DNA from: a virus
Direction: 5' to 3' (one strand)
Length of the DNA: 51,598 nucleotides
Virus record (IMG/VR): IMGVR_UViG_3300045988_159957
Shown: one piece after another, positions 8,980-40,785 of the stretch
Layout: each line of letters opens with the position of its first letter
How positions within the stretch are numbered: the first letter of the stretch is position 1
Position numbers and translations under genes: made by a program
Notes under the pieces: generated by a model
The model's database searches: none
Told to the model about the DNA's origin: nothing
The model's input: only the letters and a program-made list of their open reading frames with translations

Positions 8980-9249
8980 ATGAGTGCAATATCAATCATT
9001 GGTTGTGCTGTAGGAGTGATCGGCTGTGTAGTGGGTGTTGCGACATTTATTTCAGCTCAGATTACAAAAGCAAAACAGGATGGCATGTTAATTTCTAAGA
9101 TTGATCAATGTGTTAATGGCATTGAAGAGATTAAGAAAGACATGAAAGAAAAGAACAGAGAAATTGATGTCATTATTGACAATCATTCTCAAAAGATTGT
9201 TCGCTTAGAGACAGAAATGAAAGCAATAAAAGAACACTTAAATGTGTAA
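8980..9249 (+). CDS. Small membrane protein (N-terminal TM plus coiled coil)
   Basis: 89 aa with a hydrophobic N-terminus IIGCAVGVIGCVVGVATFI followed by a charged helical region. Strong RBS. Confidence 0.6.
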   Translation: MSAISIIGCAVGVIGCVVGVATFISAQITKAKQDGMLISKIDQCVNGIEEIKKDMKEKNREIDVIIDNHSQKIVRLETEMKAIKEHLNV

Positions 9250-9261
9250 GGAGGAAATGAA

Positions 9262-9429
9262 ATGGCAGCAAAAGATGATGCACTTGAACAATCTCAGGCA
9301 TTGAATCAGCTCTTACTTGAGATGACTAGAACACAGAAGATGCAACAAAAAGAACTTATAAAAGTCTATATTGTTACGGTTGTGTGCTTCACAGCTCTTC
9401 TTATTTCAATGATTATCGGGTTCTTCTGA
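9262..9429 (+). CDS. XhlA-like small membrane protein (coiled N-terminus, C-terminal TM)
   Basis: 55-aa ORF below the track cutoff, read by hand: MAAKDDALEQSQALNQLLLEMTRTQKMQQKELIKVYIVTVVCFTALLISMIIGFF. AAGGAGG RBS at 9248-9254. Confidence 0.55.
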   Translation: MAAKDDALEQSQALNQLLLEMTRTQKMQQKELIKVYIVTVVCFTALLISMIIGFF

Positions 9430-9575
9430 TATGAGAGCCAGTTTGAAACGACTACTCAAACCACAGAAAAAATTGTGACTCAGGAAGTTTCTGGCACGGA
9501 TTCCGAAATCAACAATGTAGAAGGAAATCTATACAAAGATAATGCTGTGCATAATGATGAGAGGGGAGATAACTA

Positions 9576-15274: not shown

Positions 15275-16680
15275 CCCTCCTTGACCACATAGTCAACGAT
15301 TTTTTTCTTTGCTTGTAGGGCTTCAAGCATTTTTTCATCTATACTCTTACCCTTTCTGAGTTTCGCCAGCATTATGTAATAATACACGGGTCTTGTCTGA
15401 CCTGGACGATGTATTCTTTTTCTCGATTGCTCATATAGAGCTAATCTCCTAGGTAAGCTGTAGTATATACAATATCTAGAACGGGTGAGATCAATAGACT
15501 CTGAACCTGAGCTGTATTGAACAGCAAGCACTCTTGTCTTACCTGCTTTCCAATCATTCATGGTATCTTCTTTTCCACTCAGCTCACTACACTTCACACC
15601 CATCTTTCTACAGATTAATCTTATATTCTTAAGATCTTTTCTGTAAGCTGCAAAAACAACAATGGGTTCTTTCTCTGGAAATTGTTCAAGCAATGAAAGA
15701 AATTCCTCTCTCCTAGCATGATCTACATTGACTACAGATTTCTCCTTTGTGTCAAAATCTTCAACAACAAGATACCCAGAAGTGAGCTGTTGAAGCCTGA
15801 GAACAAGTGTTAGAGCATTTGAGGATTCCATGTATTTCCCGTTCAGTTCTGCAATTTTTTCTTTCACTATGCTATGATAGAGCTTTTCAGATTTAGTAGG
15901 TAATGTAAAGCTCCATTCAATATCTGTTTGCTCTGGAAGTTCTACAGAAGACTCAATATAGAAAGCACAGCTGTACATCTTCTCCCTTAACTTATCAAGA
16001 TTCTTGTACGGATTCTTCTTATCCAGCATTCTGAATCCCATTGCTGCAGAAAGGTCAACATCTACATTTTCATATTCATTTCTGAATTCTGTGAAATTTG
16101 TACCGAATATCTTTGGATCCAGGAATCTATATTGTGCATACACATCCACAGGGTTTTCAGCTAAAGGGGATCCTGTTACAAGATATCTGTGAGGAACTTT
16201 CTGTCCTAGCATGCTAAGATATCTTGAGCAATTGCTCCTGGGAGACTTTATTCTATGGCTCTCATCACAAATTACACAATCAATACCAAGTGTTTTTCTA
16301 AGAAACATCCGGTCAATACCATGCCTCCACACCTTTTCGTAGTTTATAATAAATACATAGATCTTATCCTGGGAAGCTGTGGTCGTGATTTTAGGAATTG
16401 TTTTAAGTTTATCAATAACTTTTGCCGTGGAAAGGTTGTTGAGCCTGTATACGTCAAATAACCCATCTATTCCGTGTATAGATATTTGCTGTTCCCACAC
16501 TTCACAGGCTTTATACGTGGCAACAACAAGAACTCTTTTGAATCTTCTATTCTGCATTAGATCTATCATGACTTTTGTTTTTCCTGTTCCCATGTCAGTA
16601 TACAAGGCAGCAGCATCCCTTTTCATGAGGTATTTTAGAGCCTTTTTCTGATGTTCCCATGGTTTTGTTTTGAATCTCAT
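15265..16680 (-). CDS. SNF2-family DEAD/H helicase
   Basis: Motif I DMGTGKT, motif II CDESHRIK, and C-terminal helicase motifs (IHRPGQTRPV). Confidence 0.9.
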   Translation of the reverse strand: MRFKTKPWEHQKKALKYLMKRDAAALYTDMGTGKTKVMIDLMQNRRFKRVLVVATYKACEVWEQQISIHGIDGLFDVYRLNNLSTAKVIDKLKTIPKITTTASQDKIYVFIINYEKVWRHGIDRMFLRKTLGIDCVICDESHRIKSPRSNCSRYLSMLGQKVPHRYLVTGSPLAENPVDVYAQYRFLDPKIFGTNFTEFRNEYENVDVDLSAAMGFRMLDKKNPYKNLDKLREKMYSCAFYIESSVELPEQTDIEWSFTLPTKSEKLYHSIVKEKIAELNGKYMESSNALTLVLRLQQLTSGYLVVEDFDTKEKSVVNVDHARREEFLSLLEQFPEKEPIVVFAAYRKDLKNIRLICRKMGVKCSELSGKEDTMNDWKAGKTRVLAVQYSSGSESIDLTRSRYCIYYSLPRRLALYEQSRKRIHRPGQTRPVYYYIMLAKLRKGKSIDEKMLEALQAKKKIVDYVVKEGWE

Positions 16681-17174: not shown

Positions 17175-17420
17175 TCAACTCCTAAACATTGTACATGTGA
17201 CTACTTTTCTGTTGATGACCATGTTAGGCTTCTGAAAGCAATTTCCCAAATCACCTCTGCTACACTTTACACAGAGATGCTCCTTTTCTTTTGCAGAGAT
17301 AGCTGCATTGAGAATACTCTTGATCTCACACAGTTCTTTCTTAGATTCCATGTTACCAGTTGCATCTGCATAAGCAATTTTTCCATCAATTTCTAGGATA
17401 GCTTCTTCAATCTTGGTCAA
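17175..17420 (-). CDS. Hypothetical Cys-containing protein (TTG start)
   Basis: TTG at 17420 lies 9 nt after AGGAGG. Confidence 0.45.
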   Translation of the reverse strand: MTKIEEAILEIDGKIAYADATGNMESKKELCEIKSILNAAISAKEKEHLCVKCSRGDLGNCFQKPNMVINRKVVTCTMFRS

Positions 17421-17694
17421 TTTTCAATACCTCCTTTACATCTTCTATGGAGTAGCAGATACCAACAAGAGCTCCGGCTGCTTGCCATTTCTTTAAATAC
17501 AACTTTTGCTGTTTAGTAGGTTGATACCCTGTATCTGGGCTTTTAAGTTCTATCTTGAAACATCTTCCTTTGTAGCAGCCATTGATATCTGCTCTCCCAC
17601 TCTGCTTTGCATTCCCACTTACATTCTCTGCTACACATTGAGGGAGAGAATTCAGATATCTGAGGACTTTACTCTGCAATACTGACTCTACCAT
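17407..17694 (-). CDS. VRR-NUC domain nuclease
   Basis: GRADINGCYKGRCFKIELKSP...QQKLYLKKWQAAGA gives the D...ExK core typical of VRR-NUC. Confidence 0.75.
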   Translation of the reverse strand: MVESVLQSKVLRYLNSLPQCVAENVSGNAKQSGRADINGCYKGRCFKIELKSPDTGYQPTKQQKLYLKKWQAAGALVGICYSIEDVKEVLKIDQD

Positions 17695-18083
17695 ATCTCA
17701 TCATCGTCATCATTCTTTACAAGAATAGACTCTGTGCGACAGAACCCTGCTATTGCTTTGTCATCCCAGTATTCATTTGCATACACCTTTCTTGTACTAT
17801 TGTTGAAGAGAATCTTACACTCATCAAGATTATCATTGATAGCATCAAAATGCAATCCTCTCTCCGTGCAGAACTCAACTGCAGCTTTCAGTCTTTCATT
17901 GTCTCTGCTAGTCCAGAGAATTATCTTTGCACCCTTATCAATGGCTTCTCTCACCATACCCCAAGTAGCTTCAATGGGTTCTCCAATCTCAGGAAATCTG
18001 TCCTCAACCAGAGTACCATCAAAATCAACCGCAATGATGTATGGTAACTTGTTCATTTGTTCTTTAGAAACATTCTTCTCCAT
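17688..18083 (-). CDS. HAD-superfamily phosphatase (candidate dNMP nucleotidase)
   Basis: N-terminal DxDGT motif IIAVDFDGTLVED, 131 aa. Confidence 0.65.
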   Translation of the reverse strand: MEKNVSKEQMNKLPYIIAVDFDGTLVEDRFPEIGEPIEATWGMVREAIDKGAKIILWTSRDNERLKAAVEFCTERGLHFDAINDNLDECKILFNNSTRKVYANEYWDDKAIAGFCRTESILVKNDDDDEIW

Positions 18084-18426
18084 AAATATTCAATTCCTCC
18101 TTCATTTTTCTTGTCAGCCATACTCTTAACCAGCCCTGACGATCTGTATTGCTCTCAATATACAACTCAGGGTGAGCTCTCCTGTAGAAATCTTTCACCA
18201 ATTCCTTGAGAACTTTTATATCATTCTTAGAGGACATAGCCAGATGAATATTGAAATCTTCCTTTGCCCATCTTGAAATGATATCATTAAGATCCGTAGT
18301 TTCAAGAGTTTTTTCTCTCATAAATCTCTTGTACAGATCGTCATCAATGTAAGAGATGTGCGTCCATTCTGCTCTATCATGTTCTTCATTGACAACTTTT
18401 ATGATCACTTTTCCCAACTTTGCCAT
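18064..18426 (-). CDS. Hypothetical protein (120 aa)
   Basis: ATG 18426 lies 7 nt after AGGAGG (track start 18513 is inside the upstream gene). Confidence 0.5.
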   Translation of the reverse strand: MAKLGKVIIKVVNEEHDRAEWTHISYIDDDLYKRFMREKTLETTDLNDIISRWAKEDFNIHLAMSSKNDIKVLKELVKDFYRRAHPELYIESNTDRQGWLRVWLTRKMKEELNIYGEECF

Positions 18427-19213
18427 TGATATCCTCCTGAGATTCAGTAACTTCTCTGTTCTTGAGTGATGTGTTGTAATCTCTCTCATATAAATGAAGA
18501 GATGCAGCAACATGAGTATATGTTCCCAGTTCTACTCCAAGCCGCATTGCAAGATAGATCTGAATGCAAGTGAACTGGAACACATCATTCGGGAAGCCCA
18601 TCCAAAGGTCATTGCTCCGCATGTAGGTTGTCATGCACAGTCTTCCGTCTCTCAAAAGGAACTGAAGACATACGGTACAGTTCAGATCTTTAGTAGGATT
18701 CTCAATGATATTTGTTGCTTCCTTGATGTGAATCACCGCCTGACGTGTATTCGGATCTCTCCGGAGGAGTTCTTCACACATCTTGAGCTGATCAAAAGAA
18801 CCAGTCCCATGCTTCCAATCAACAGCATTCTGTATCTTTTCTCCATAGTTGCTGTTAACAACCTCTCCATCATCACTCATTCTGTCCCAAGCCCTAGTAT
18901 AGAGCTGAATAGCTTTCAAGGTAGGAATTCCAGAAAGATACCAAAGGAGTTCACCGATACAGTATCTCATCGGCAGCTTTCTTATAGGACTTTTCAGGAT
19001 GCATCTTGTAGGATCCTCTATGGTGGTTACTGCATTGATGATTTCACCAATCACAGCCCCATCTCTGCTAGAGTCTACACCTTTGCTTTCCTGAGCTATG
19101 CACTCAATTTCATCATACCAGAATTTCCAGGCTTCATCTATATCTTTTGCGTATTTTGTTATGTTGTATGCTGTATTCACGGTTCTACAATGCCTCCTTT
19201 TGATGTGTCCCAT
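18386..19213 (-). CDS. ThyA-family enzyme (thymidylate synthase or predicted dUMP hydroxymethylase)
   Basis: YMRSNDLWMGFPNDVFQF (compare YQRSxDxxLGxPFN), NCTVCLQFLL (catalytic Cys region), SLHLYE. An alternative GTG start at 19180 overlaps the kinase stop. Confidence 0.8.
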   Translation of the reverse strand: MGHIKRRHCRTVNTAYNITKYAKDIDEAWKFWYDEIECIAQESKGVDSSRDGAVIGEIINAVTTIEDPTRCILKSPIRKLPMRYCIGELLWYLSGIPTLKAIQLYTRAWDRMSDDGEVVNSNYGEKIQNAVDWKHGTGSFDQLKMCEELLRRDPNTRQAVIHIKEATNIIENPTKDLNCTVCLQFLLRDGRLCMTTYMRSNDLWMGFPNDVFQFTCIQIYLAMRLGVELGTYTHVAASLHLYERDYNTSLKNREVTESQEDINGKVGKSDHKSCQ

Positions 19214-19644
19214 ACAAGGACATTTGGTGCTATCAAAGATTTCTCAAACATGATTGATTCAAATCTACCCTTGACTTCACTTATTGTCAGTCCATTGATG
19301 AGTGTTTCACCCCTGTCAGAAAGCCTTTCTTCAATATCCTTCTTATCTGCTGTTACATAGATCACTTTTGCACTGAAAGCCATCATTTCAACTTCCAACT
19401 TGTGAAGATTCTTGATAGAACCCAGAGGTCTTTCCTTTTCTTCCTGATACACAAACTGACCGTAACAGAATCTGTCAGCAATAACATTCTTCTCTCTTGA
19501 AGCCATGATCAGTTCATGAAAAAACCTCATGTCATTTGGTGTAAGAGTGGTACAATGAATGATGTCTGCATTCATCACTTTTGCAAGGTTATTTGCAACG
19601 GTTGTTTTTCCAGCCCCATCACATCCTTCTAATACAATCAGCAT
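19177..19644 (-). CDS. Thymidylate-kinase-like dNMP kinase
   Basis: P-loop IVLEGCDGAGKTT and a DRFCYGQFVYQ motif (the Tmk DRY/F..S..YQ pattern). Confidence 0.75.
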   Translation of the reverse strand: MLIVLEGCDGAGKTTVANNLAKVMNADIIHCTTLTPNDMRFFHELIMASREKNVIADRFCYGQFVYQEEKERPLGSIKNLHKLEVEMMAFSAKVIYVTADKKDIEERLSDRGETLINGLTISEVKGRFESIMFEKSLIAPNVLVWDTSKGGIVEP

Positions 19645-19802
19645 TTTGTTTCCTCCCTCTTTATATCAATTCTTATTACATCACGAACTCTGTATACAGA
19701 TATCTTCCCATCGGTAACTTTCAAGTCCATTCTGGGTATAGCTTTATTCTCACAGAGCAACTTATATGCATTACTTATCCATTCCAAATAATCTCTTTCC
19801 AT
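19638..19802 (-). CDS. 54-aa hypothetical protein, translationally coupled between the rSAM and kinase genes
   Basis: Hand-read MERDYLEWISNAYKLLCENKAIPRMDLKVTDGKISVYRVRDVIRIDIKREETKC. GGGAGGA RBS lies inside the rSAM 3' end. Its stop overlaps the kinase ATG. Confidence 0.5.
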   Translation of the reverse strand: MERDYLEWISNAYKLLCENKAIPRMDLKVTDGKISVYRVRDVIRIDIKREETKC

Positions 19803-19804
19803 GA

Positions 19805-20770
19805 TCATTCCTCCCATTTCTGCTTATGCCAGTTATCACCACAGAGCGGTTCACTTGTCTCTGACACTGATTTTGCAAACTCTTCGATCTTTTTAGTAGG
19901 TTCAGGCATCGTCTCTTTTCCAAGCTGATCCGGAAGCAATCCAACTCTATGAGATAATGCATTACAGCCAAGACAAGGAGTGAAGTTTCTCTTTCCAGCA
20001 TAGAGCAATATTCTTGCAGCTTTGAATTTCTTATCCTGCCAAATATCATCTATGCCTCTCTTCAGGATATTTCCGATAGGGTATTCTCCTCTAAAGTCAT
20101 TACAGCACAGAGCAACTGAACCATCATACCGGAATGTCATCTCTCTGAAAGGTCTTGCACAACGCTTACCATCATAAGAATAATCTAAAGGGGCAGCAGC
20201 ACCACAGTGATTACACAGGTGCCGATTGATTGCAGCACCCTCATCTGTCTGAATGGGTGGATTGAAGAGAATTCTGAACTTTTTATGACTAGAGCTGTAC
20301 AATGGAATACCTTTACCAAGAATTTCATACTCAAAGTCTTTGTTATCTTTGATATACTCAAGAATTTGGTGTCCATCATCTTTAGGGGTATACATGTCTA
20401 TGATCAAGTCATTAAGTCCTGCAGATTTGAGCTCAGCAATCTTGGCTTCGATGCCATCGGAATGTACAATGCCATATCCGTTGGTCATCATTGACAACAC
20501 AGCTTTGGGAAGCCTTTTTCTAAAGAGCTTTACCAATCGAACACAGTTCTTGTTAAGCGTAGGTTCTCCATGCATGCTGAAGATTATTCTGCTATTCCAT
20601 CCAACTCTAACAATTTCATCTGCTATTCTCTCTGCTGTTTCTTTTGTCATGAAATAGAATGGTTCTTTTCCTTTCTCTCTCATGCCTCTCAAACCACAGA
20701 ATCCACAGCCACGATTGCACCCCTCAGTGAACTCTACCTGAATTGAGAAAGGTCTTTCTTGAAGCTTCAT
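19805..20770 (-). CDS. Radical SAM enzyme with a C-terminal SPASM/twitch-like Cys cluster
   Basis: CNRGCGFC (CX3CX2C), plus a C-terminal CNHC...CARP...CCNDF...CLGC. ATG 20770 lies 6 nt after GGGAGGA. Confidence 0.85.
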   Translation of the reverse strand: MKLQERPFSIQVEFTEGCNRGCGFCGLRGMREKGKEPFYFMTKETAERIADEIVRVGWNSRIIFSMHGEPTLNKNCVRLVKLFRKRLPKAVLSMMTNGYGIVHSDGIEAKIAELKSAGLNDLIIDMYTPKDDGHQILEYIKDNKDFEYEILGKGIPLYSSSHKKFRILFNPPIQTDEGAAINRHLCNHCGAAAPLDYSYDGKRCARPFREMTFRYDGSVALCCNDFRGEYPIGNILKRGIDDIWQDKKFKAARILLYAGKRNFTPCLGCNALSHRVGLLPDQLGKETMPEPTKKIEEFAKSVSETSEPLCGDNWHKQKWEE

Positions 20771-20772
20771 TA

Positions 20773-21717
20773 TCATTCCTCCCAATATTCTTTGATTGCT
20801 TTTGTTCCTCTTATCTTATGGAGCTTCCGGTAGTCGATATCACCCCACATGTAGTTACCCTCTTCATCTCTGAATGAAATTCTGAGGTAATCACGAATAG
20901 GATACTTCTGCAGCATTCTATATTCATAAGCATGGAGCTCTTTCTCTGTTTCCGGAGTTCTTATAACACTATCACATTTTTCACTCACATAGTCATATGT
21001 GAGACAAGGGATATTAAAAAGAGATCCTCCGGCTTTCAGAATAACTGCACAGAACCCAATATCATCACCATGACGGTCAAATCTCTTCACATCACGGTCA
21101 ATACCAGCCTTGTGAAGCCCTTTCACATTTATAAATGTCACCTGCCTAGGAGTAGGTCCAGCATTGATGATGTACTTGAGTTTAGCATTATCCACTGCCT
21201 GACTGAGTCTCTGTCTTCTAATGTTTCCAAGATACACATCAGGGTAGTTCTTAAACACTTCTCTTGACAGCTTTGCAGCCATGAGTAACACTTTCTGCTC
21301 AAGCAGAGGATCCTTTTCTCTATCAATTTGGATCGTGTGTTTTGAGCAAAGATGACCCGTTCCGGATACCCCATCATACATGTATGCAACGTACTTGATG
21401 TCATCATCCATATCAATTATCATGGAATATTTATGCTCAACTGCATATTCATATATGAATTGACGTGTGCTCGCAAGACCATTGATCGGGTAATCCTCCG
21501 GAATCGGAAGAACATGGAATTCGGGGTTCTGTTTCTTGTAAGCTTCATATTGTTCACTCCTTACAACAATATGGATCTTTTTCTTCACTTCTTCAGAGAA
21601 TGTTCTAAAGAGCTTTGCACTCACAAAATCAGGTCTGTTATAGGACGGGCAAAATATATGTGGCATGGAGCTTACATCAAGCTCATCCAGCAGTCTTTTC
21701 ATTTTCTTTTTCTTCAT
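20773..21717 (-). CDS. GT-A-fold glycosyltransferase-like protein (DxD), function unknown
   Basis: IFCPSYNRPDF...IHIVVRSEQYEAY...MIIDMDDDIKY pattern resembles small phage DNA-glycosyltransferase/TAGT-like GT-A enzymes. Assignment by eye only. Confidence 0.4.
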   Translation of the reverse strand: MKKKKMKRLLDELDVSSMPHIFCPSYNRPDFVSAKLFRTFSEEVKKKIHIVVRSEQYEAYKKQNPEFHVLPIPEDYPINGLASTRQFIYEYAVEHKYSMIIDMDDDIKYVAYMYDGVSGTGHLCSKHTIQIDREKDPLLEQKVLLMAAKLSREVFKNYPDVYLGNIRRQRLSQAVDNAKLKYIINAGPTPRQVTFINVKGLHKAGIDRDVKRFDRHGDDIGFCAVILKAGGSLFNIPCLTYDYVSEKCDSVIRTPETEKELHAYEYRMLQKYPIRDYLRISFRDEEGNYMWGDIDYRKLHKIRGTKAIKEYWEE

Positions 21718-21730: not shown

Positions 21731-21755
21731 ACAAAAGGGGAGCAATTCGCTCCCC
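21731..21755 (-). terminator. Rho-independent terminator (minus strand) between the DUF669-like gene and the GT-like gene
   Basis: Minus-strand GGGGAGC-gaatt-GCTCCCC followed by TTTTG. The stem is 21737-21755. Confidence 0.65.
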
Positions 21756-21771
21756 CTTATTCAACTACATG

Positions 21772-22512
21772 TTATTCCTCATCCCAGTCATCATCGTCAT
21801 CTTCGTCGTCATCATCTTCCGGCTCAGGCTTCTTTTTTGCGGGAGCTTTCTTCGCAGGAGTCTTCTTTGCAGGAGCAGCCTTTTTCACAGGTTTCTTCTT
21901 GGGTGCAGGCTCTTCCTCTTCGTCATCATCCTCATCTTCGTCATCCCAATCATCGTCGTCATCATCCTCATCTTCATCCTCAGGAGGATTCATGGGAGCC
22001 TTTTTCTTGGTAGCTGTCTTGGCAGATGCTTTCTTAGTAGGTTTCTTTTTAGGAGCTTCCTCCTCTTCATCATCTTCATCGTCATCAGAATCATCTTCCT
22101 CATCCTGATCCTCATCGTCATCTTCTTCATCAGCTACAGCTGCCAGCTTCTTACATTCCTGGACTCTGGAACGGATTTTACCCTCATACTCTTCATCAGA
22201 CACGGTGATGATGCAGACCTTTCCGATCAGCTTATCCAGATCCAGTCTTACCTTGCCATCACACTTCATACCGATTGCCTGGAGCAGTCCTTTCAGCTTC
22301 CACAGAGCATTCTCAGCCAGAGGATAATTCTCGATACATCTTGCTCCCTTGTCAGATCCCTTGGTCACTTCATAAGTGACAACAATCATATCATTTCCAC
22401 CCTGAGACTGTTTCATATCAGCAGATACGATCTTTACTACATGCTGCCCCTCACTAGGACGATTGAAACTCTCAACTCCGGTGAAATCAACGTTTACTTT
22501 CTTACTTGCCAT
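21772..22512 (-). CDS. DUF669-like ssDNA-binding protein with a long Lys/Asp/Glu low-complexity tail
   Basis: The N-terminal ~125 aa (FNRPSEGQHVVKIVSA...ALWKLKGLLQAIG) look DUF669-like. The tail has APKKKPxKK blocks alternating with D/E runs and ends DDDWDEE. Confidence 0.55.
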   Translation of the reverse strand: MASKKVNVDFTGVESFNRPSEGQHVVKIVSADMKQSQGGNDMIVVTYEVTKGSDKGARCIENYPLAENALWKLKGLLQAIGMKCDGKVRLDLDKLIGKVCIITVSDEEYEGKIRSRVQECKKLAAVADEEDDDEDQDEEDDSDDDEDDEEEEAPKKKPTKKASAKTATKKKAPMNPPEDEDEDDDDDDWDDEDEDDDEEEEPAPKKKPVKKAAPAKKTPAKKAPAKKKPEPEDDDDEDDDDDWDEE

Positions 22513-25107: not shown

Positions 25108-25129
25108 ATAAATTTTTATAAAAATTTAT
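25108..25129. repeat. Perfect 22-bp A/T palindrome just upstream of P3
   Basis: ataaatttttataaaaatttat is its own reverse complement. It overlaps the stop of CDS 25126..25767. Confidence 0.8.
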
Positions 25130-25767
25130 TCCCTTTTGAATCGTACTTCACTGAAGGACGGAATATGCTTAATCTTACAGCTCATTTCTCTGCATTCTTC
25201 AGGAACTTTGCCATAGAACAGCACACCTTTTGGTGACAGCTCTTTAAGCATTTTTTCATAACCATTTAAGAATAGCTGCTTTGAAGTTTTACCGGAAAGA
25301 GCACCAGTGGAGCTTACAGTTACCCAGCTATCCTTGGGTTCTCCATCAAAGCACCATTCAAATGAATATTCATCACTCCAGCATATAGTAGGTATTACAA
25401 TAATTCCTTTACTCTGCATATAAGCAGCGAGCCAGTGCTTTCTATAATGATTGTACATTTGAAGTGGTAATGGATAATCTGTAAACAAACTAAAATCAGG
25501 TGATGCTACAACTGCATATCTCTGAAGAATACTGCAATATTTATCAGGATCATTCCAAACTCTTTCGAATTGATAATCATCAAGATAGAAATGAACTCCT
25601 GTTGCTTCACCATTCCTTGATTGTTTAGTGGAATAATTGAAGCCAATCCACTCCTTTACTTTAGGTAAGTGCCTAGTAGGTTCAATCACAGGAAAGTCAT
25701 ATTCTGTTCTCTGAAAATCTGACCATCTCTGCAGATTCTGATAATTTCTCGTCTGTTTATGAGTCAT
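25126..25767 (-). CDS. DUF4417-like protein
   Basis: 213 aa. GVHFYLDDYQFERVWNDP...VASPDFSLFTDYP...NHYRKHWLAAYMQSKGIIVIPT pattern recalled as DUF4417. Assignment unverified. Confidence 0.4.
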   Translation of the reverse strand: MTHKQTRNYQNLQRWSDFQRTEYDFPVIEPTRHLPKVKEWIGFNYSTKQSRNGEATGVHFYLDDYQFERVWNDPDKYCSILQRYAVVASPDFSLFTDYPLPLQMYNHYRKHWLAAYMQSKGIIVIPTICWSDEYSFEWCFDGEPKDSWVTVSSTGALSGKTSKQLFLNGYEKMLKELSPKGVLFYGKVPEECREMSCKIKHIPSFSEVRFKRE

Positions 25768-28131: not shown

Positions 28132-28614
28132 TCAACAACAGTACCTCCAATCCTCACATGTCCTTGATTGCTGCTGTGAGTTATTAAGTATCTCTCCTGT
28201 GACCTCACAGCAGATGCTAGAAGAATGGTGATTGTTAAGATACTTACAATAGGAACAGCTGTAAATTTCTCTAGTAGGTTCCAGCTCTTCACAGGCATAC
28301 CCATTTCTATTGAACCATTCTCTTATGATATCTCTGTGACAATGCTTTCCAGGCTTTTCCCAACACAACAAGACTTTTCCATTCAGCCTGTTGTAGAATT
28401 CTTTGACATCTAGAGCTTTCAGCTTCTTGATGTAAGCTTTCCTGAATTCCTTCCAAGTGATCACCCCGTCTTTATAGCTTTTCACCATCTTCCAATCTGG
28501 CTTCAGCTCTTCGCACACCTCATATTCTGTTCCTTTGGGCACACTATTTGCTACTGATACACCACAGGATCCCCTGTAGTGAGCAAAATATCCAGTAAAT
28601 ACCATATAAATCAC
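28132..28614 (-). CDS. DUF488-like protein with a Cys-rich C-terminal extension
   Basis: VLLCWEKPGKHCHRDIIREWF resembles the DUF488 signature. The tail is CSYCKYL...ICCEV...CEDWRYCC. The start is uncertain (GTG 28614 or ATG 28605). Confidence 0.45.
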   Translation of the reverse strand: MIYMVFTGYFAHYRGSCGVSVANSVPKGTEYEVCEELKPDWKMVKSYKDGVITWKEFRKAYIKKLKALDVKEFYNRLNGKVLLCWEKPGKHCHRDIIREWFNRNGYACEELEPTREIYSCSYCKYLNNHHSSSICCEVTGEILNNSQQQSRTCEDWRYCC

Positions 28615-30719: not shown

Positions 30720-31184
30720 TCAACCTTTCTTGTAGAATGGCTTTACTCCTTCAACTGCTTCTGCACTGTAGCATATATCACATCTACCATATTCATGGTT
30801 CTTTGAGTATACACATGTCTCACAGCCTTGAGCTTCTTTAGTAGGCTCAACAGATCTATCAACAGTAGTTTGCTGCATACTATCGCTTGCATCAAGCCAT
30901 CTCTTAAGTCTACCTATCTTTCTTTTCATTCTGTCAAGAACCTCTTCATCTGACAGCTCAAATATATTCTGCACGTGATCAAGAATGATCTTGACATCTG
31001 ACACTTCATCAAGAACTGCATCTACAAGTTTTGCTCTTGCTTCTTCCTCATTATCATAGCGAGGAAATTTTGCTAAAACACAGGCAAGCTCATTGAGCTC
31101 CTCTATGCACACGAGAATTTGATTCTTGTTGCCATAGGTGTCTCTGGCTTGTTTTAAGATCTTACTCATTTCTTCATTACTCAT
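30720..31184 (-). CDS. MazG-like nucleotide pyrophosphohydrolase with a C-terminal Cys motif
   Basis: EELNELACVLAK and DEVSDVKIILDHV (EExxE...ExxD), plus a C-terminal CETC...CDIC. Confidence 0.7.
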   Translation of the reverse strand: MSNEEMSKILKQARDTYGNKNQILVCIEELNELACVLAKFPRYDNEEEARAKLVDAVLDEVSDVKIILDHVQNIFELSDEEVLDRMKRKIGRLKRWLDASDSMQQTTVDRSVEPTKEAQGCETCVYSKNHEYGRCDICYSAEAVEGVKPFYKKG

Positions 31185-31195
31185 GATTTCACCCC

Positions 31196-31672
31196 TTATG
31201 AATTATTGTCTTCAGCATTCCAAGCTGCATGAATTGTTTGCACACCGGCTTCATCAAACATCCTTTGAGTCATAGGAGAGACACTTTCTCTTCTTCCATA
31301 GATCACTTCCTTTATCCCTGCCCGAATGATAGCTCTTGCACAAGCTTCACAGGGATATCTTGTAATGTAAATTGATGATCCATAGAGGCTTATTCCAACT
31401 CTTGCTGCAATAGAGATAGCGTTGACCTCACTGTGAATTGCCACACAATCACTAGGTAATCTGTGATTTTTAGAATCTTCTCCATACAGTTCAACTCTAT
31501 GACATCCCTCTTCTTTACAATTTCTTCCTATTCCCTCATTAAATCCCCATACCAAGTCTTCTCCATCCTTATCTGTGATGACACAACCGACGTGGACTTT
31601 AGCACAGGTAGAAAGGCTGTCTGCTTTTCTCTGTACTCTATCAAGCCAATCATTGATGTTATAATCCTGCAT
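31196..31672 (-). CDS. dCMP deaminase
   Basis: HSEVNAI and PCEACARAI zinc motifs. ATG 31672 lies 6 nt after GAGGAGG. Confidence 0.85.
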   Translation of the reverse strand: MQDYNINDWLDRVQRKADSLSTCAKVHVGCVITDKDGEDLVWGFNEGIGRNCKEEGCHRVELYGEDSKNHRLPSDCVAIHSEVNAISIAARVGISLYGSSIYITRYPCEACARAIIRAGIKEVIYGRRESVSPMTQRMFDEAGVQTIHAAWNAEDNNS

Positions 31673-32057
31673 TGTCTTCCTCCTCAATCTGGTATAAAAA
31701 TTCTATTGCTTCTGGAAGATCCTCTACCAGAATAGATGGGTTTCCATTTCTATCCAAGTATGTGAATCTCTTATTCTTCTTTTCCTTTCTCTTTTCAGCT
31801 ACAGAGGTTCTCACATAGAATCGATGTGCCTGTCTTAATGCAAGACAAGTCCAGATAAGGAATAGGGAAAGCATCAACAAGCCATCAGATCGACATAAAA
31901 CACTGTAGCTATATAAGGTGAGAATGCATATTGCAATAATATCTCTGAGCACGTAGAAGAGCTCAAGAAGAGCTCTTGTAAGAGCCTTTACTCCTTTTGC
32001 AATCCCTTTAGAAAGACCAATCATTGCTTCCTTAAATGTATTCTTCATATCTCTCAC
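31659..32057 (-). CDS. Membrane protein (two or three TM segments), hypothetical
   Basis: 132 aa with hydrophobic stretches IIAICILTLYSYSVL and LLMLSLFLIWTCLAL. Confidence 0.5.
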   Translation of the reverse strand: MRDMKNTFKEAMIGLSKGIAKGVKALTRALLELFYVLRDIIAICILTLYSYSVLCRSDGLLMLSLFLIWTCLALRQAHRFYVRTSVAEKRKEKKNKRFTYLDRNGNPSILVEDLPEAIEFLYQIEEEDNAGL

Positions 32058-32641
32058 ACTCCATACACTTTACTTGCAAACATGTCCGCTGTATGAACAA
32101 ATAACACATTTGGATATTCTCTTACAGCAGCATCATAACTGTTCCAGAAATCTTTCTCATAAGCTCCCATGTGATGAACAATGCAAATTTTTTCTTCCTC
32201 TGTAAGATCTACATATCGTTCAGCAATAAGTGCAGAAGCAACCCCATGACCAGGGATGATAGGTGTCCTGTATTGCCAAGTGCCCTCATGATCTTTCTCA
32301 TAGGTTTCCAACTTGCAAAGATCATGGAACAGTCCTATGATTATCGGAGATTCCGGTCTTTCCCATTTGAGATCAAGATTAACTGTCAACTCCAGCAGCT
32401 TATGCACCACAGCCAGGCTATGATCAAAAAGTCCTCCATCATAGGCACCATGATATTTAGTGCTTGCAGGGTTCAAACAGAAGTCTCTGTCAATAAGACT
32501 TCTTAAGATAGGTTCACTCAAACAAGGGAGATCACTAAAGTTACTGAGTAGAAAATCTATTCTTTCTCCAACTGTGTGATATCTATTGTCAAGGTATTCT
32601 TCTAATTCCTTCATTATTCCTTCATAGTATCCAGTTCTCAT
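32054..32641 (-). CDS. HD-domain phosphohydrolase
   Basis: YHGAYDGGLFDHS...LFHDLCK...IVHHMG. ATG 32641 lies 8 nt after AGGAGG. Confidence 0.75.
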   Translation of the reverse strand: MRTGYYEGIMKELEEYLDNRYHTVGERIDFLLSNFSDLPCLSEPILRSLIDRDFCLNPASTKYHGAYDGGLFDHSLAVVHKLLELTVNLDLKWERPESPIIIGLFHDLCKLETYEKDHEGTWQYRTPIIPGHGVASALIAERYVDLTEEEKICIVHHMGAYEKDFWNSYDAAVREYPNVLFVHTADMFASKVYGV

Positions 32642-32642
32642 T

Positions 32643-33692
32643 TTATATTCCTCCTCTATATTTATTCTTGGGTCTTCCTGTCCCATTCACAGCCTTTACA
32701 TACTTACTCAATTCACACATGCAATTCTCAATAGACATCACATTCATAAGCCTGTCATATTTGGGTAAATCATGAAACAACTCTACTGGAACATACATTG
32801 GATGCCCATAGTCATATTCAAGCAGCTCTGATGCATCAAACAGACTTCTATAGCCCTCAGCATTTATAGCGTCTCTCAGCCAGAATATACACTCTTCATA
32901 AGTCATTCCATCTTTATCCTTAAAGATGAGATCAAGTCCTCTCTTACACCCAGGACCAGCTACCGTGAATTCATTCTCACTGAAAGGGAATTCTGGTATA
33001 TAGGTCAGATCTACAAACACCTGATATGCAAGAAAATCAGCAAAGCCTTTAATAGACTTTATGATCTCAAAGCATTCTTTCTGGTCATGTGCATTTAGAA
33101 GTTTATTCACAATGCCATACTTTCCAAGCCACACCCCTACATGGAACGGTCTCAAAGGAATGTCTTGTTCCTTATCAATGGGGTGTTCCATGTCACTTGA
33201 CCTCCAGGCTTGTTTTGTTCCACCCTGATTGTAAGCATTTGACCACCACAACCTCCCAGGATCAGCAGCCTGGAGTCTTTTATATATAGGACGGACAAAT
33301 TCCTTTAGATCAGAATGGTACAGTGTTTCGGCTGAATAAGGGAATCCAAAGGAATCAAGAGTGCTCCAATTATTCCAACATCGAAACATGAAACAGTTTA
33401 CGATCTTATCTTCGAGGGTAAGATCAGCATTGTTGACAATACTCTTTATGAGATACCTTGTCTGTCTGTCATGCTCTCTACGAACATTTGTAAATTTGAA
33501 CTCTCTCAATACAGGGTTATCAGTCCAAGGAGCTGGAAGCCCTTTCAAATCTTTCCTTTTATGAATTCTGTATCGATCAACAACAAATCTTTTGAAGTGA
33601 TACACATTCTCCCAGTCAAGAATGGGTTCTGCTGAATCTATGACTTCTTCTCTTACTCCACAATAAAGGACATCAGCTTTCTTTGTTCTCAT
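32643..33692 (-). CDS. aGPT-Pplase-like protein (alpha-glutamyl/putrescinyl thymine pyrophosphorylase family), DNA base hypermodification
   Basis: RYRIHKRKDLKGLPAPWTDNPVLREFKFTNVRREHDRQTRYL matches the remembered PWT.DP.L..(Y/F).F.NV.RE.DR.T signature of the family. Not verified by search. Confidence 0.55.
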   Translation of the reverse strand: MRTKKADVLYCGVREEVIDSAEPILDWENVYHFKRFVVDRYRIHKRKDLKGLPAPWTDNPVLREFKFTNVRREHDRQTRYLIKSIVNNADLTLEDKIVNCFMFRCWNNWSTLDSFGFPYSAETLYHSDLKEFVRPIYKRLQAADPGRLWWSNAYNQGGTKQAWRSSDMEHPIDKEQDIPLRPFHVGVWLGKYGIVNKLLNAHDQKECFEIIKSIKGFADFLAYQVFVDLTYIPEFPFSENEFTVAGPGCKRGLDLIFKDKDGMTYEECIFWLRDAINAEGYRSLFDASELLEYDYGHPMYVPVELFHDLPKYDRLMNVMSIENCMCELSKYVKAVNGTGRPKNKYRGGI

Positions 33693-33996
33693 TCAAATAC
33701 TCCTTTCTATAATATTGTGCTGCTGAACAAATGAACTCTTTTGTCTTAACACTTGAATGAGAATAGATCTTATCATAATCCTCTTTACTCATGTTCTTAA
33801 GTGCCTGAGACTTTGCCAATCTTACAGCCTTTTCGATGCAAGCATAGCTCTTTCCGATCTCTTTCTGCAGGTGTGTGTAGAATGAAGAATCTCCATCATG
33901 CTCTACCACGTACTGAATAGCTTTACAAATGTAGGAAAATCCTGTAAGATTTGTAGGAACTTTCAGTATACTCCAAACAAAATTCGAAATAGACAT
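33673..33996 (-). CDS. Spo0A C-terminal (DNA-binding) domain-like protein without a receiver domain
   Basis: LKVPTNLTGFSYICKAIQYV / IEKAVRLAKSQAL / KTKEFICSAAQY align by eye to B. subtilis Spo0A [20 protein letters not shown] / VERAIRHAIEVAW / PTNSEFIAMVAD. ATG 33996 is preferred over GTG 34008. Confidence 0.55.
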   Translation of the reverse strand: MSISNFVWSILKVPTNLTGFSYICKAIQYVVEHDGDSSFYTHLQKEIGKSYACIEKAVRLAKSQALKNMSKEDYDKIYSHSSVKTKEFICSAAQYYRKEYLNENKES

Positions 33997-34039
33997 TAAA
34001 CTTTTCACCCCTTTCTATTACTTTTTACAACCCACAAGT

Positions 34040-37186: not shown

Positions 37187-37747
37187 TTATTTGCTGAAAT
37201 AATGATCATCCTCTTTGAACAGCGGTGTGCCAAAAGGATGGTAGTGTGCCGTTCTGAAATAGAGTACTTCTGTGTTTGTCTGATTCTCCAGTTCCTCTAC
37301 TACAATTCTGTATGTATCATCAGTAGGATTTACTGTCTCTATAGAGCCATTTTCTACGACCTTGAATTGATTGGGTTCATCTATTACTTCAAAATAGCTG
37401 CTGTATTCTCCCTGATTGAACCTGTTAAGAATCACATCACACACCAGTCTTTTACCTAACTCTGACTGATTTCCGGCTTCTGCTTCTACACAGCAAGCAA
37501 TGTACTCAAGGGAATCATTGTATTCTTCCTCCTGCAGCAGATCCCCAGTGACCTCCTGGACGATCACAGCTTCTGCAGATGATTTAACTTCCGGTGTAAA
37601 GCTGTAGACCCTTACTGGATCTACATAGGTCAACTCATTGCTGTCCCAGCTTAATACATATAATAAGGCAATAACTGCCACAGCCAACGCACTGTACAAG
37701 TAGGTCTTGCACAAAAACACAAGACACTCAACTGATATGTCTTTCAT
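37187..37747 (-). CDS. SleB/CwlJ-type cell wall hydrolase (Hydrolase_2) with an N-terminal TM anchor
   Basis: ACCVEAEAGNQSELGKRLVCDVILNRF...NQF...EVLYF matches the Hydrolase_2 signature. The N-terminal hydrophobic segment is LYSALAVAVIALLYVL. Confidence 0.7.
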   Translation of the reverse strand: MKDISVECLVFLCKTYLYSALAVAVIALLYVLSWDSNELTYVDPVRVYSFTPEVKSSAEAVIVQEVTGDLLQEEEYNDSLEYIACCVEAEAGNQSELGKRLVCDVILNRFNQGEYSSYFEVIDEPNQFKVVENGSIETVNPTDDTYRIVVEELENQTNTEVLYFRTAHYHPFGTPLFKEDDHYFSK

Positions 37748-38269
37748 TTATTGTCTCGCCCCCTCATTCTCCATCTCTTGTATCATAGAATATCCCATCT
37801 CTTGTATCATAAGATGGTCAAACTTCACCAGGACCTTGCTCCATTGATCCTCCGGAATCGCTCCACAATCATACTTCTCCTGTAGATTATGAAAGCACTG
37901 AATTAGATATCTGTAATTGTGCCAAGACTCATACAGGTTTTTGCATGGATCCTCACATTCCTCATCAAGTGTGTACCAAGGATTGATCTTCCTGAACACA
38001 CCATTGTTGCTTGCCTTACATAAGTTCTTGTAGAATTGATCTAAAGACTTCTTATTTACTTTGAATCCTCTCTTCTCGATCTCATTGATGACTTTGTTTG
38101 TGTAATATAAAAATGATGTCTCATCATACTCAATGAGTCTATTCACGAGAATATGGTTCGGTCCTCCTTTCTCTGCCATATTCTTCGCTATACAGCAACA
38201 TTCTCTCCATTGAGCAATGAGCTGTCGATTGGGTAACACATCAATCAGATCCTTATGCCACATTCTCAT
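37748..38269 (-). CDS. DenV-like pyrimidine-dimer DNA glycosylase family protein (TIGR02328-like)
   Basis: MRMWHKDLIDVLPNRQLIAQWRECCCIAKN matches the MRLWHxxLIxxLPxxQLLGQxRE signature. An alternative GTG start lies at 38275. Confidence 0.6.
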   Translation of the reverse strand: MRMWHKDLIDVLPNRQLIAQWRECCCIAKNMAEKGGPNHILVNRLIEYDETSFLYYTNKVINEIEKRGFKVNKKSLDQFYKNLCKASNNGVFRKINPWYTLDEECEDPCKNLYESWHNYRYLIQCFHNLQEKYDCGAIPEDQWSKVLVKFDHLMIQEMGYSMIQEMENEGARQ

Positions 38270-38283
38270 CTTCACTTTTCCTC

Positions 38284-39950: not shown

Positions 39951-40052
39951 GAGTTTTTTAAAAGAATTTTCACACAAATTTCACAGAGTGACATAATTGT
40001 GTATGAAAACGGTTTTACGTTCATAAATTTTATAAAATAAAAACTCCATTTT

Positions 40053-40785
40053 ATACCTATTTTTGCACCTATTTTTAGGTATTATTTCTCAAAATTTTTT
40101 ATTTTTGGTGTAAAAATTTACTGTACAAGGTAAAGCAAAAACAGGTATATTTATCACAAAAATAGGTATAAAAATAGGTATTTTTAGCATTTTGTATGAG
40201 TAGCATTTTGACAAAAATAGGTATAAAATTTTTGAAGAATTCACTATTTTACTCTACTTGTCATGATTTTAAAAATACCTATTTTTGTTTTTATCCTGTG
40301 CTTTTGTGGTCAACTGAATTTTGTGTAAAAATTAAGTGTCTTTGCGAAATGTGAAAATTTTGACAGTTTACTCTCAGTTTACTTTATAAGGTAAAATAGA
40401 ATAGGTTTTTTATTGATCAAAATAGGTATTCTCTTTCAAAAATAGGTATAAAAATAGGTATTTTTGTGTAAAATCTATGAGTGTGCAAACACAAAAATAG
40501 GTATAAAATTTTTTCAGAATGTTGTATTTTACTCATAAAACTACTATTTTCAAAATACCTATTTTTATTTATATTGTTGTAGGTACAATAAAAAATAATA
40601 GTATAATTTACATATAGACATATATAATATATATAAAATAAATGCACACAAAAATAGGTATAAAAATCGCCAAAATCGCTTGAATTGCTCTCTCGAATGG
40701 CATTTTCAGAAAAAACAAAAATAGGTATACGATCGTGCAAACTTCATCATTTTACTCATCCAGTCACGATTCGCAAAAATAGGGT
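40053..40785. repeat. Iteron array: AAAAATAGGTAT motif, at least 9 forward and 3-4 inverted copies (candidate replication origin or operator array)
   Basis: Forward copies start at 40158, 40170, 40213, 40419 (11-mer), 40438, 40450, 40493, 40650 and 40717, with a degenerate copy at 40775. Inverted copies (ATACCTATTTTT) start at 40053, 40275 and 40555, with a degenerate copy at 40066. The block 40156-40290 is re-used at +280 bp. Confidence 0.85.
40561..40650. other. Extremely A/T-rich stretch inside the iteron region (candidate DNA unwinding element)
   Basis: atttttatttatattgttgtaggtacaataaaaaataatagtataatttacatatagacatatataatatatataaaataaat. Confidence 0.5.

Follow-up and report, generated by a model that had tools for sequence, protein, structure and literature searches.

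A TAGT-like glycosyltransferase and a Twitch radical SAM enzyme in a predicted DNA-hypermodification cluster of an uncultured phage

The IMG/VR virus record IMGVR_UViG_3300045988_159957, a stretch of 51,598 nucleotides that was analysed as a whole and is called the window below, contains a run of seven minus-strand genes that raises a simple question: what is built when a glycosyltransferase (GT), a radical S-adenosylmethionine (SAM) enzyme, a Tmk-like kinase, a ThyA-family enzyme and a HAD phosphatase are encoded side by side, and on which base? An initial annotation, made from the sequence alone, had proposed a new thymidine hypermodification module. Re-reading of the open reading frames (ORFs) placed all seven genes at 17688-21717, exactly as given there, and the domain calls were borne out: the GT belongs to TAGT (PF20691), the radical SAM enzyme carries Radical_SAM and SPASM domains, and the remaining enzymes matched a Tmk-like kinase, Thymidylat_synt and a BT0820-type HAD protein. 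A DNA base-hypermodification module was supported by our analysis, and a cytosine-derived base is a more likely target than thymidine. We assign a probability of roughly 0.6 to the reading that the cluster is a two-stage DNA-hypermodification system, in which a hydroxymethylpyrimidine, predicted to be cytosine-derived, receives a sugar from the GT in DNA and is tailored by the radical SAM enzyme. The cassette is real, recurrent and uncharacterised, and it is a variation on the theme of a hydroxymethylpyrimidine plus a glycosyltransferase. The window is that of a phage, since it encodes PolA, a D5-type primase-helicase, SNF2, DUF669, PDDEXK, a cell-wall hydrolase and other phage functions; the host probably belongs to the anaerobic gut Clostridia.

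The glycosyltransferase and its radical SAM partner

The GT gene (20773-21717, minus strand) encodes a GT-A-like protein of 314 amino acids (aa) of the TAGT (TET-associated DNA glycosyltransferase) family. The protein matched PF20691 with E = 8.5e-13 (49.1 bits against a gathering cut-off of 27.5), phrog_4519 (glycosyltransferase, E = 5.9e-26) and phrog_842, the beta-glucosyl-HMC-alpha-glucosyltransferase of T-even phages (E = 2.3e-15), and it is homologous to glycosyltransferases of Microbacterium phages. The acidic DxD motif of GT-A enzymes is present as DDD (D104-D105-D106) and is at least 90% conserved across the groups A and C described below. The homology is to the TAGT DNA type and not to peptide or cell-wall enzymes. 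The enzyme would thus be a DNA-type glycosyltransferase, whose acceptor is predicted from gene context to be a 5-hydroxymethylpyrimidine, or a sugar on it, in DNA.

The following gene (19805-20770, minus strand) encodes a radical SAM enzyme of 321 aa with a BtrN-like Twitch, or abridged SPASM, auxiliary-cluster domain. It was recognized by PF04055 (E = 5.8e-17, 62.8 bits against a cut-off of 29.5) and by PF13186 (SPASM; E = 8.8e-13, 48.8 bits). The cluster-binding motif CX3CX2C is formed by C18, C22 and C25, which are invariant among the aligned homologues, and the predicted auxiliary ligands are C204, C222 or C223, C266 and C269. The sole sequence relative in the PDB was BtrN (4m7t/4m7s, E = 7e-12). 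In the HMMER alignment C204, C222, C266 and C269 line up with four BtrN cysteines, which we take to be the auxiliary-cluster ligands in the BtrN structure. Beyond this set, three further cysteines (C186, C189 and the second Cys of the CC pair) are invariant or nearly so. Of the earlier description as a SPASM/twitch-type enzyme, the Twitch part stands, owing to the four aligned cysteines. The full seven-cysteine SPASM motif (CX9-15GX4C...CX2CX5CX3C...C) was not found: C204-x12-G217-x4-C222 and C266-x2-C269 give CX12GX4C...CX2C, and no CX5CX3C follows. Because the rest of the signature is absent, the domain was classed as Twitch-like. BtrN, the 2-deoxy-scyllo-inosamine dehydrogenase of butirosin biosynthesis, shares the CX3CX2C core and the single-cluster Twitch domain with the window enzyme; however, the similarity is low, the substrates must differ and BtrN is not linked to DNA or nucleotide metabolism.

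Gene linkage was assessed in 80 IMG/VR loci encoding the radical SAM enzyme, 67 of them distinct, by scoring their 10-kb flanks with hidden Markov models. A TAGT-like GT was present in 65/67 distinct loci, and in 61/67 it lay no more than 300 nt from the radical SAM gene. The pairing spans at least three unrelated genome architectures. Group A, which comprises the relatives of the window, has the order DUF669, TAGT, radical SAM, a variable slot, Tmk, ThyA (Asp), a homologue of the 120-aa protein of the window and HAD, where Asp or Asn refers to the residue discussed in the next section. In group B (contigs of 50-100 kb) a gene for a Mu F-like head protein is followed by the radical SAM gene and then by a gene for a 228-aa protein that is a TAGT by hhalign (P = 96%, E = 3e-9); HMUDK_hel, a protein family to which we return below and which is also encoded in the window, is found 8-9 kb upstream of the radical SAM gene. 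Group C (e.g. L088) has the order SNF2, a 276-aa ORF, TAGT, radical SAM, HMUDK_hel, ThyA (Asn) and HD, and HMUDK_hel adjoins the radical SAM gene in L071, L072 and L088. As the linkage holds across these architectures, the invariant core is the radical SAM-GT pair. The third component of the module to recur is HMUDK_hel, and a hydroxymethylase of either specificity type is also seen repeatedly. L081, one of the two loci that lack a TAGT-like gene, has a weak GT-B-like gene upstream of the radical SAM gene (Glycos_transf_1, E = 5e-4, below the Pfam cut-off).

Some of these loci showed further peculiarities. The pair of group B (L002/L003 and others, ~9000-11650) is located in the head-morphogenesis module and not in the replication module, behind the portal gene and the gene for the Mu F-like protein with an HPYCRC motif. 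The 310-aa upstream neighbour in this group was considered as a divergent GT, ThyA or HMUDK_hel and rejected (hhalign probabilities ≤7%); it is not a partner, since its C-terminal HPYCRC suggests a Mu F-like head protein. In L081 (8667-12150) the radical SAM gene is followed by an IS605 OrfB/TnpB gene with a Cas12f1-like TNB domain. L073 (8386-11559; also L086) has the order TAGT, a 260-aa unknown protein, radical SAM and then adenylylsulfate (APS) kinase (E = 1.6e-57), which hints at glycan tailoring by sulfation of a DNA-linked glycan.

The 878 homologues of the radical SAM enzyme are on phage-sized contigs and none of them is named. A radical SAM gene with 99% identity to that of the window occurs on IMGVR_UViG_3300045988_132478. 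A single weak match to the family was obtained in 50,697 deposited phage records, and in the genomes of 185,579 species it was found on 4 contigs only, all of them metagenome-assembled genomes of gut Bacteroidales or Clostridia. Likewise, blastn of the 4-kb region against deposited phages gave no match. Oxygen-labile radical SAM chemistry would fit anaerobic gut hosts and may account for the absence from cultured phage collections; as the family is missing from these, its product has very likely never been seen chemically. The TAGT-like GT and the Twitch radical SAM enzyme thus form a new conserved pair, shared by dozens of separate phage lineages of anaerobic habitats. The literature search yielded no paper on the TAGT-radical SAM pairing, none on HMUDK_hel with glycosyltransferases, and nothing that combines radical SAM, glycosyltransferase and 5-hydroxymethylcytosine (hmC) or aGPT-Pplase, so that the initial view of the combination as unexplored agrees with the published record.

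The ThyA-family enzyme and the modified base

The ThyA homologue (18386-19180, minus strand; 264 aa, GTG start) matched PF00303 with E = 7e-23. Judged by its sequence it is a divergent pyrimidine hydroxymethylase and not a bona fide thymidylate synthase (TS), as had been thought from the start: it scored far below the cut-offs of all eight NCBIfam TS equivalog models (best NF002497, 71 bits versus 327), and its top match in the PDB was the CMP hydroxymethylase MilA (E = 2e-31), followed at a distance by the best TS (E = 4.5e-17) and the T4 dCMP hydroxymethylase (E = 7e-10). The catalytic Cys, equivalent to C146 of the E. coli enzyme and C148 of T4, is C168 and occupies an invariant alignment column. 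At the column of E. coli TS Asn177 the window enzyme has Asp instead of Asn (motif GFPNDVF). The same Asp is found in all group A relatives, the Agathobaculum phage AB434P2, the Microbacterium phage Luna18, T4 gp42 (D179) and MilA, whereas Asn occupies this column in SPO1 gp29, M6 gp58 and the group C enzymes. The position following the catalytic Cys divides the enzymes in the same way: it holds Thr in the cytosine enzymes (window, T4 gp42, MilA, Luna18), Asn in the dUMP hydroxymethylases (SPO1 gp29, M6 gp58, group C) and His in E. coli TS.

In E. coli TS, Asn177 reads the uracil O4/N3, and D179 of the T4 dCMP hydroxymethylase (dCH) determines cytosine specificity; in mutagenesis of TS and dCH, N177D/N229D and D179N swap the specificity. 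Because of the Asp/Thr signature and these known swaps, dCMP is the predicted substrate. The ThyA homologue is probably a dCMP 5-hydroxymethylase, and the precursor made by it would be 5-hydroxymethyl-dCMP rather than hmdUMP.

The cultured Microbacterium phage Luna18 (SEA-PHAGES, Neferthenavirus) is informative here, as one cluster in its replication module contains the whole toolkit minus the radical SAM enzyme: HMUDK_hel, an Asp-type, T4-gp42-like hydroxymethylase, a TAGT-like GT that is 30% identical to the window GT, Tmk, a second GT and MazG. Both HMUDK_hel and Tmk-like kinases are thus found in the company of cytosine-type (Asp) enzymes, since all three are present in this cluster. There is no radical SAM gene in Luna18, and its non-structural half yielded no dCMP deaminase; the host of Luna18-type phages is aerobic. 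No paper on the DNA modification of Luna18-type phages was retrieved by the literature search, which included Microbacterium phage with hydroxymethyl.

Among cultured phages the closest hydroxymethylase, 57% identical and of the Asp type, is that of AB434P2 (L004, 1314-5582), where it is annotated as a dUMP enzyme. It is not linked to a GT or a radical SAM gene, and it is preceded by a weak choline-kinase-like gene (E = 7e-4, below the Pfam cut-off), a cytidylyltransferase-like gene and an unannotated 328-aa ORF. This gene set suggests a different hypermodification that uses a CDP-activated group.

A two-stage pathway and its alternatives

Besides the seven genes, the initial annotation had drawn attention to four minus-strand genes at 30720-33692, and all four assignments were verified. 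The largest product is HMUDK_hel (32643-33692), a stand-alone protein of 349 aa and a clade-1 aGPT-Pplase of the M6 gp55 / ViI gp160 type (PF18723, E = 6.9e-61). Along its entire length it shares 39% identity with orf156 of the ViI-like phage Cba120 and with counterparts in related phages, all annotated as hypothetical. In Pfam the M6 proteins gp55, gp54 and gp51 are assigned to PF18723, to the kinase family PF18748 and to the ADDT family PF18724, respectively. HMUDK_hel has an invariant Cys326-Glu327 and a motif E322-N323-x-x-C326, which resembles E243-T244-x-x-C247 of PaMx11 gp46 in a weak local alignment (E = 0.027); in PaMx11 gp46 this Cys attacks C6 (PMC11472151). The all-alpha AF2 model (predicted local distance difference test, pLDDT, 88.7) had no fold match in the PDB by Foldseek (best E = 0.9), the solved Pplase2 8Z2M included, and a sequence search of the PDB was empty. 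Domain fusions were sought, and the best 120 homologues were all stand-alone. ViI gp160 has been classed as aG/PT-PPlase1, and SP10 has the domain fused to a kinase (PMC5889632), while M6 gp55 was dispensable for the first, glycine-transfer step as reconstituted from lysates (PMC8989533).

The remaining three are an HD-domain phosphohydrolase (32054-32686, 210 aa; PF01966, E = 4e-5; phrog_28876, metal-dependent phosphohydrolase), a dCMP deaminase (31196-31687; PF00383, E = 6.7e-18; phrog_174, E = 3e-30) and a MazG-like nucleoside triphosphate pyrophosphohydrolase (30720-31184, 154 aa; phrog_2245, E = 1.6e-14, with no Pfam MazG match at threshold). The HD protein, which has parallels in a YfbR-like HD gene after the hydroxymethylase gene of L088 and in M6 gp59, would hydrolyse canonical dNTP or dNMP and so clear the pool. 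The MazG-like protein, also represented in the equivalent cluster of Luna18, is a candidate for the exclusion of a canonical dNTP.

The kinase of the cassette (19177-19644, minus strand; 155 aa) is a short Tmk-like P-loop deoxynucleoside monophosphate (dNMP) kinase (PF02223, E = 7.5e-10; phrog_761, E = 6e-16) that carries the Tmk-like NMP-binding motifs (DRF...VYQ). It scored 55 bits with TIGR00041, under the 83-bit cut-off, and its best match in the PDB was YorR of SPbeta (2axp, E = 1.5e-12). Its predicted role is the phosphorylation of the hydroxymethyl-dNMP that the neighbouring ThyA-like gene product would supply. The possibility of a split 5-hydroxymethyl-deoxyuridine (5-hmdU) DNA kinase was rejected, as only the P-loop is common to this protein and M6 gp54: the window kinase matched 19 Pfam families, PF18748 not among them, M6 gp54 does match PF18748, and tblastn of M6 gp54 against the window returned the P-loop alone (E = 0.08). 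The window is indeed devoid of a P-loop 5-hmdU DNA kinase by PF18748, as first noted, and the kinase-independent context noticed in the initial annotation is real. The HAD phosphatase (17688-18083, minus strand; 131 aa) belongs to the BT0820 family (NF046079, E = 2.7e-28, 99 bits versus a 165-bit cut-off), with matches to phrog_24386, phrog_1238 and PDB 2obb (E = 1.5e-15), and it is kept at 51-55% identity in group A. It may be a dNMP nucleotidase that acts in pool clearing, or a sugar-phosphate phosphatase.

From these assignments a pathway in two stages can be proposed. In the first, before replication, the ThyA-family enzyme would hydroxymethylate a pyrimidine dNMP, predicted from family membership and specificity residues to be dCMP. 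The Tmk-like kinase would phosphorylate the product, leading to the triphosphate and to its incorporation by the phage PolA, while the MazG-like, HD and HAD hydrolases would clear the competing canonical nucleotide and the dCMP deaminase would feed dUMP/dTTP synthesis. This stage is suggested by the families to which the proteins belong and would parallel T4, SPO1 and M6. In the second stage, after replication, the TAGT would load the 5-hydroxymethyl group in DNA with a sugar taken from a host nucleoside diphosphate (NDP)-sugar, and the Twitch radical SAM enzyme would remodel this sugar, or the NDP-sugar donor, by radical H-abstraction. Judging from BtrN, it would most likely oxidise a C-OH to a ketone, or bring about an epimerisation or deoxygenation that starts from such an oxidation. 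HMUDK_hel might present the hydroxymethylpyrimidine in DNA, or might itself carry out kinase-independent C5/C6 chemistry by means of its invariant Cys-Glu. It is the conserved gene linkage that suggests these second-stage roles. The expected product would be a glycosylated, radically tailored 5-hydroxymethylpyrimidine that shields the DNA from host nucleases. More tentatively, we suggest that uncultured gut-anaerobe phages may carry a chemically new pyrimidine, cytosine-derived here and uracil-derived elsewhere, whose sugar or C5-methylene linkage is rebuilt by a BtrN-like radical SAM enzyme and on which HMUDK_hel acts kinase-independently.

Several points weigh against the two-stage reading. 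No chemistry has been observed, and the substrate of the radical SAM enzyme was deduced solely from linkage and the distant similarity to BtrN (E = 7e-12). The TAGT match of the window GT stays within the N-terminal half of the 205-position model (positions 2-96); the GT homologues of L088 and L073 span the full model. The ThyA homologue is overall nearer to the dUMP enzyme SPO1 gp29 (35% identity, E = 1.5e-27) than to T4 gp42 (27%, E = 4e-13), so that the cytosine call rests on two alignment columns and MilA. As HMUDK_hel has no structural relative, its proposed catalytic Cys rests on the motif and the weak BLAST alignment given above. M6 gp55 and ViI gp160 have no assigned function (PMC8989533), and HMUDK_hel has so far been described only from hydroxymethyluracil (hmU)-modifying phages (PMC5889632). 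Two further points, the Asn-type enzymes of group C and the dCMP deaminase, bear on the choice of the base.

The strongest competitor, which we nevertheless hold to be unlikely, is thymidine hypermodification. Here a 5-hmdU precursor would be made, either by a ThyA homologue that takes dUMP despite its Asp or by the deaminase, which could in principle convert hm-dCMP to hm-dUMP; the Tmk-like kinase would follow, and the GT, the radical SAM enzyme and HMUDK_hel would build a glycosylated or C-C-extended hmU. The Asp at the Asn177 column and the Thr after the catalytic Cys, which are the cytosine signature of T4 gp42 and MilA, argue against this reading; the Asp is present in the window enzyme and in all its close relatives. 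The occurrence of HMUDK_hel in the hmU phages M6, ViI, PhiW-14 and SP10 (PMC5889632) and the Tmk-like fold of the kinase, which usually handles uracil-type nucleotides, would both favour thymidine, but Luna18 joins HMUDK_hel and Tmk to an Asp-type enzyme with no deaminase found. Group C, on the other hand, sets the same GT-radical SAM-HMUDK_hel module beside Asn-type hydroxymethylases like M6 gp58, so the identity of the base may differ among lineages. Moreover, SP15-like phages, which have glycosylated, C-C-extended T, are reported to possess aGPT-Pplase1 without the DNA kinase for 5-hmdU (5-HMUDK; bioRxiv 10.1101/2025.03.26.645540). That the window has neither 5-HMUDK nor ADDT speaks against thymidine.

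This last absence also separates the window from the hypermodification pathway of M6, ViI, PhiW-14, SP10 and PaMx11 (Lee et al. 2018, 2021), to which the initial annotation had related it. That pathway consists of a dUMP hydroxymethylase, 5-HMUDK, ADDT (aGPT-Pplase2) and tailoring enzymes dependent on pyridoxal phosphate, radical SAM or flavin adenine dinucleotide. Shared with the window are a hydroxymethylpyrimidine precursor from a ThyA homologue, HMUDK_hel of the M6 gp55 / ViI gp160 type, genes for HD, MazG-like and dCMP deaminase proteins, and tailoring after replication. The kinship does not extend further: since both the 5-hmdU DNA kinase (PF18748) and the amino-acid:DNA transferase (PF18724) are absent from the window (tblastn of M6 gp51 against it gave a best E = 0.17, and PF18724 was not found among the scanned ORFs), this is not a pathway of that type. 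In addition, the window hydroxymethylase is of the Asp type, the decoration is by a glycosyltransferase instead of an amino-acid transferase, and the radical SAM enzyme of M6, gp53, is an SPL-like isomerase unrelated to the BtrN-like Twitch enzyme of the window.

The T-even hmC glucosylation pathway has an overall design in common with the window, with a ThyA-family hydroxymethylase carrying the cytosine-type Asp, an own dNMP kinase, dNTP-clearing hydrolases, a dCMP deaminase and post-replicative glycosylation of DNA by a GT that in the window matches both a T-even PHROG and the Pfam TAGT family. The T-even counterparts are the gp42 dCMP hydroxymethylase, the gp1 dNMP kinase, the gp56 dCTPase, the cd dCMP deaminase and the alpha/beta-glucosyltransferases, and T6 has a TAGT-type second glucosyltransferase. 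However, T4 gp42 is only 27% identical to the window hydroxymethylase, the window kinase is Tmk/YorR-like and unlike T4 gp1, its hydrolases are of the MazG, HD and HAD types while those of T-even phages have the dUTPase fold, and T-even phages have neither a radical SAM enzyme nor HMUDK_hel.

One may ask whether the window encodes just such an ordinary T-even-like glucosyl-hmC system, the radical SAM enzyme standing outside DNA modification, perhaps as a viperin-like nucleotide-modifying or counter-defence enzyme with the adjacent kinase. We consider this very improbable. The kinase does match the PADLOC viperin-associated kinase VakA (E = 1.7e-13), and the radical SAM enzyme weakly matches the PADLOC pVip models (E = 3.8e-5). 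The pVip match is confined to residues 10-104, the generic radical SAM core, which is why a viperin identity was rejected; the NCBIfam viperin model gave 20 bits versus a cut-off of 180, and the C-terminal half of the enzyme is the Twitch/SPASM domain aligned to BtrN. Further, the gene stands beside a TAGT-like GT in the 61 closely linked loci counted above even where no kinase or ThyA gene is nearby. A DNA glycosyltransferase survey noted GT-A genes beside ThyS genes and "annotated viperins" near GT/ThyS genes (bioRxiv 10.1101/2023.12.21.572611); given the weak pVip match of the window enzyme through its core, these may be the same, uncharacterised genes. The survey belongs to work on TET/5mYOX-associated GT systems (Burke et al. 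2021; bioRxiv 10.1101/2023.12.21.572611), which likewise use TAGT/GT-A family enzymes with 5-hydroxymethylpyrimidine in DNA as the acceptor. In the window, by comparison, the hydroxymethyl group would be made before replication by the ThyA homologue and not by a dioxygenase. The pairing of GT and Twitch radical SAM enzyme is not described in these papers, and no reference to radical SAM was found in the preprint.

The ORF between the radical SAM and kinase genes (19638-19802, minus strand; 54 aa) had been taken for a conserved partner. It had no Pfam, PHROG or NCBIfam match and ~14 small homologues among 1.84 billion representative proteins, and the corresponding slot of related phages is empty (35-36 nt) or occupied by unrelated ORFs of 49 aa or 101 aa; the ORF represents a genuine family of small proteins among close relatives, but the radical SAM enzyme does not have it as a conserved partner. 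A peptide-maturation cassette, similar to those for peptides that are made by ribosomes and modified post-translationally (RiPPs), in which a radical SAM-SPASM maturase and the glycosyltransferase modify the 54-aa peptide, is hardly credible and was rejected: SPASM-type enzymes often mature small peptides encoded alongside and the small ORF does come after the radical SAM gene, but the slot is variable or empty in relatives, the GT is in the DNA-glycosyltransferase family TAGT, the nearest solved relative BtrN acts on an aminocyclitol and not on a peptide, and the cassette lies amid nucleotide-metabolism and replication genes and is elsewhere linked to HMUDK_hel and ThyA genes.

Phage DNA hypermodifications govern the action of restriction enzymes, CRISPR nucleases and sequencing or cloning enzymes on phage DNA, and systems of this kind have provided tools: hmC is mapped with T4 beta-GT and hmU with 5-HMUDK, for example. 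Should the more tentative suggestion of a chemically new pyrimidine hold, the window enzyme would be the first of its superfamily to be devoted to a glycosylated DNA base. DNA of this kind may be poorly represented or wrongly called when gut viromes are sequenced. The orphan family HMUDK_hel / clade-1 aGPT-Pplase gains a functional context, as it occurs here with glycosyltransferases and without the kinase, and its presence alongside cytosine-type hydroxymethylases takes it outside thymidine hypermodification.

Gene junctions, the 120-aa protein and other features of the window

When the minus strand was read directly, translational coupling was seen at every junction of the cassette. The GT stop codon TGA occupies 20775-20773, and the radical SAM gene starts either after a gap of 2 nt, with the ATG at 20770, or at an ATG in the same frame at 20776 (ATGA overlap), with the ribosome-binding site GGGAGGA inside the last GT codons (TGG GAG GAA TGA, W-E-E-stop). 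The radical SAM stop codon lies at 19807-19805 and the ATG of the 54-aa ORF at 19802, and this junction repeats the GT/radical SAM junction sequence GGGAGGAATGAT. The 54-aa ORF and the kinase gene overlap by 7 nt (ATGCTGA, 19644-19638), the kinase and ThyA-like genes by the 4 nt GTGA (GTG at 19180, TGA at 19179-19177) with AAAGGAGG upstream, the ThyA-like gene and the 120-aa ORF by 41 nt with AGGAGGA embedded, and the 120-aa ORF and the HAD gene by 20 nt with AAGGAGGA embedded; each of these overlaps carries a GGAGG-type site within the preceding gene. The next gene (17407-17694, VRR-NUC/resolvase-like) overlaps the HAD stop codon (ATGGTAG), and the gene beyond it overlaps as well. The tightly coupled operon described initially is therefore correct for each junction but is not confined to the seven genes: as the coupling continues past 17688, it is a trait of the whole leftward early/replication unit.

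Upstream of the GT gene, between it and the DUF669 gene, there is a terminator-like hairpin (21734-21758, minus strand) with a 10-bp GC-rich stem followed by a U-tract (UUUUG). It folds at -19.9 kcal/mol (z = -4.0; 0/200 shuffles were as stable) and may be the upstream boundary of the cassette or an attenuator.

The C-terminal codons TGG GAG GAA TGA of the GT and radical SAM genes also serve as the following gene's GGAGGA ribosome-binding site. W-E-E, W-E or W-D-E-E precedes the stop codon in several genes (20773-20785, 19805-19817, 15265-15275 and 21772-21785), and in the alignment of radical SAM homologues the C-terminal W-E is invariant, so that the recoding constraint is visible there too. 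The DUF669 protein (21772-22512), which is similar to single-stranded-DNA-binding proteins, has a long C-terminal tail of poly-Asp/Glu alternating with Lys/Pro/Ala-rich blocks, and this tail gives rise to long spurious ORFs on the opposite strand.

The protein encoded at 18064-18426 (minus strand; 120 aa) is conserved and is predicted to fold into four helices and a beta-hairpin. Searches of Pfam, PHROG and NCBIfam assigned it to no family. Its 26 homologues are all on related phage contigs, with positional homologues in group A at 25-28% identity. The Foldseek search that had been suggested for this gene at the outset was performed with the AF2 model (pLDDT 87.7) and gave no match in the PDB (best E = 0.24).

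Elsewhere in the window, the replication module encodes a DUF4417 protein (25126-25767, E = 7e-54) and a DUF488-N3a "active subclade" protein (28132-28614, E = 3e-10), the latter also matching PADLOC PDC-M45C (E = 2e-11); both may have additional roles in nucleic-acid modification or counter-defence. The small product of 33673-34008, a gene immediately upstream of that for HMUDK_hel, carries the C-terminal DNA-binding domain of Spo0A (E = 7e-7), in keeping with a Firmicutes host. A pyrimidine-dimer DNA glycosylase similar to T4 endonuclease V (37748-38275; Pyr_excise, E = 1.3e-17) adjoins a SleB-type cell-wall hydrolase (37187-37747). At 40001-42000, where both the coding strand and the GC skew change sign, the GC content falls to 0.31; the leftward early genes and the rightward structural genes are probably separated here by an origin or a divergent promoter region.

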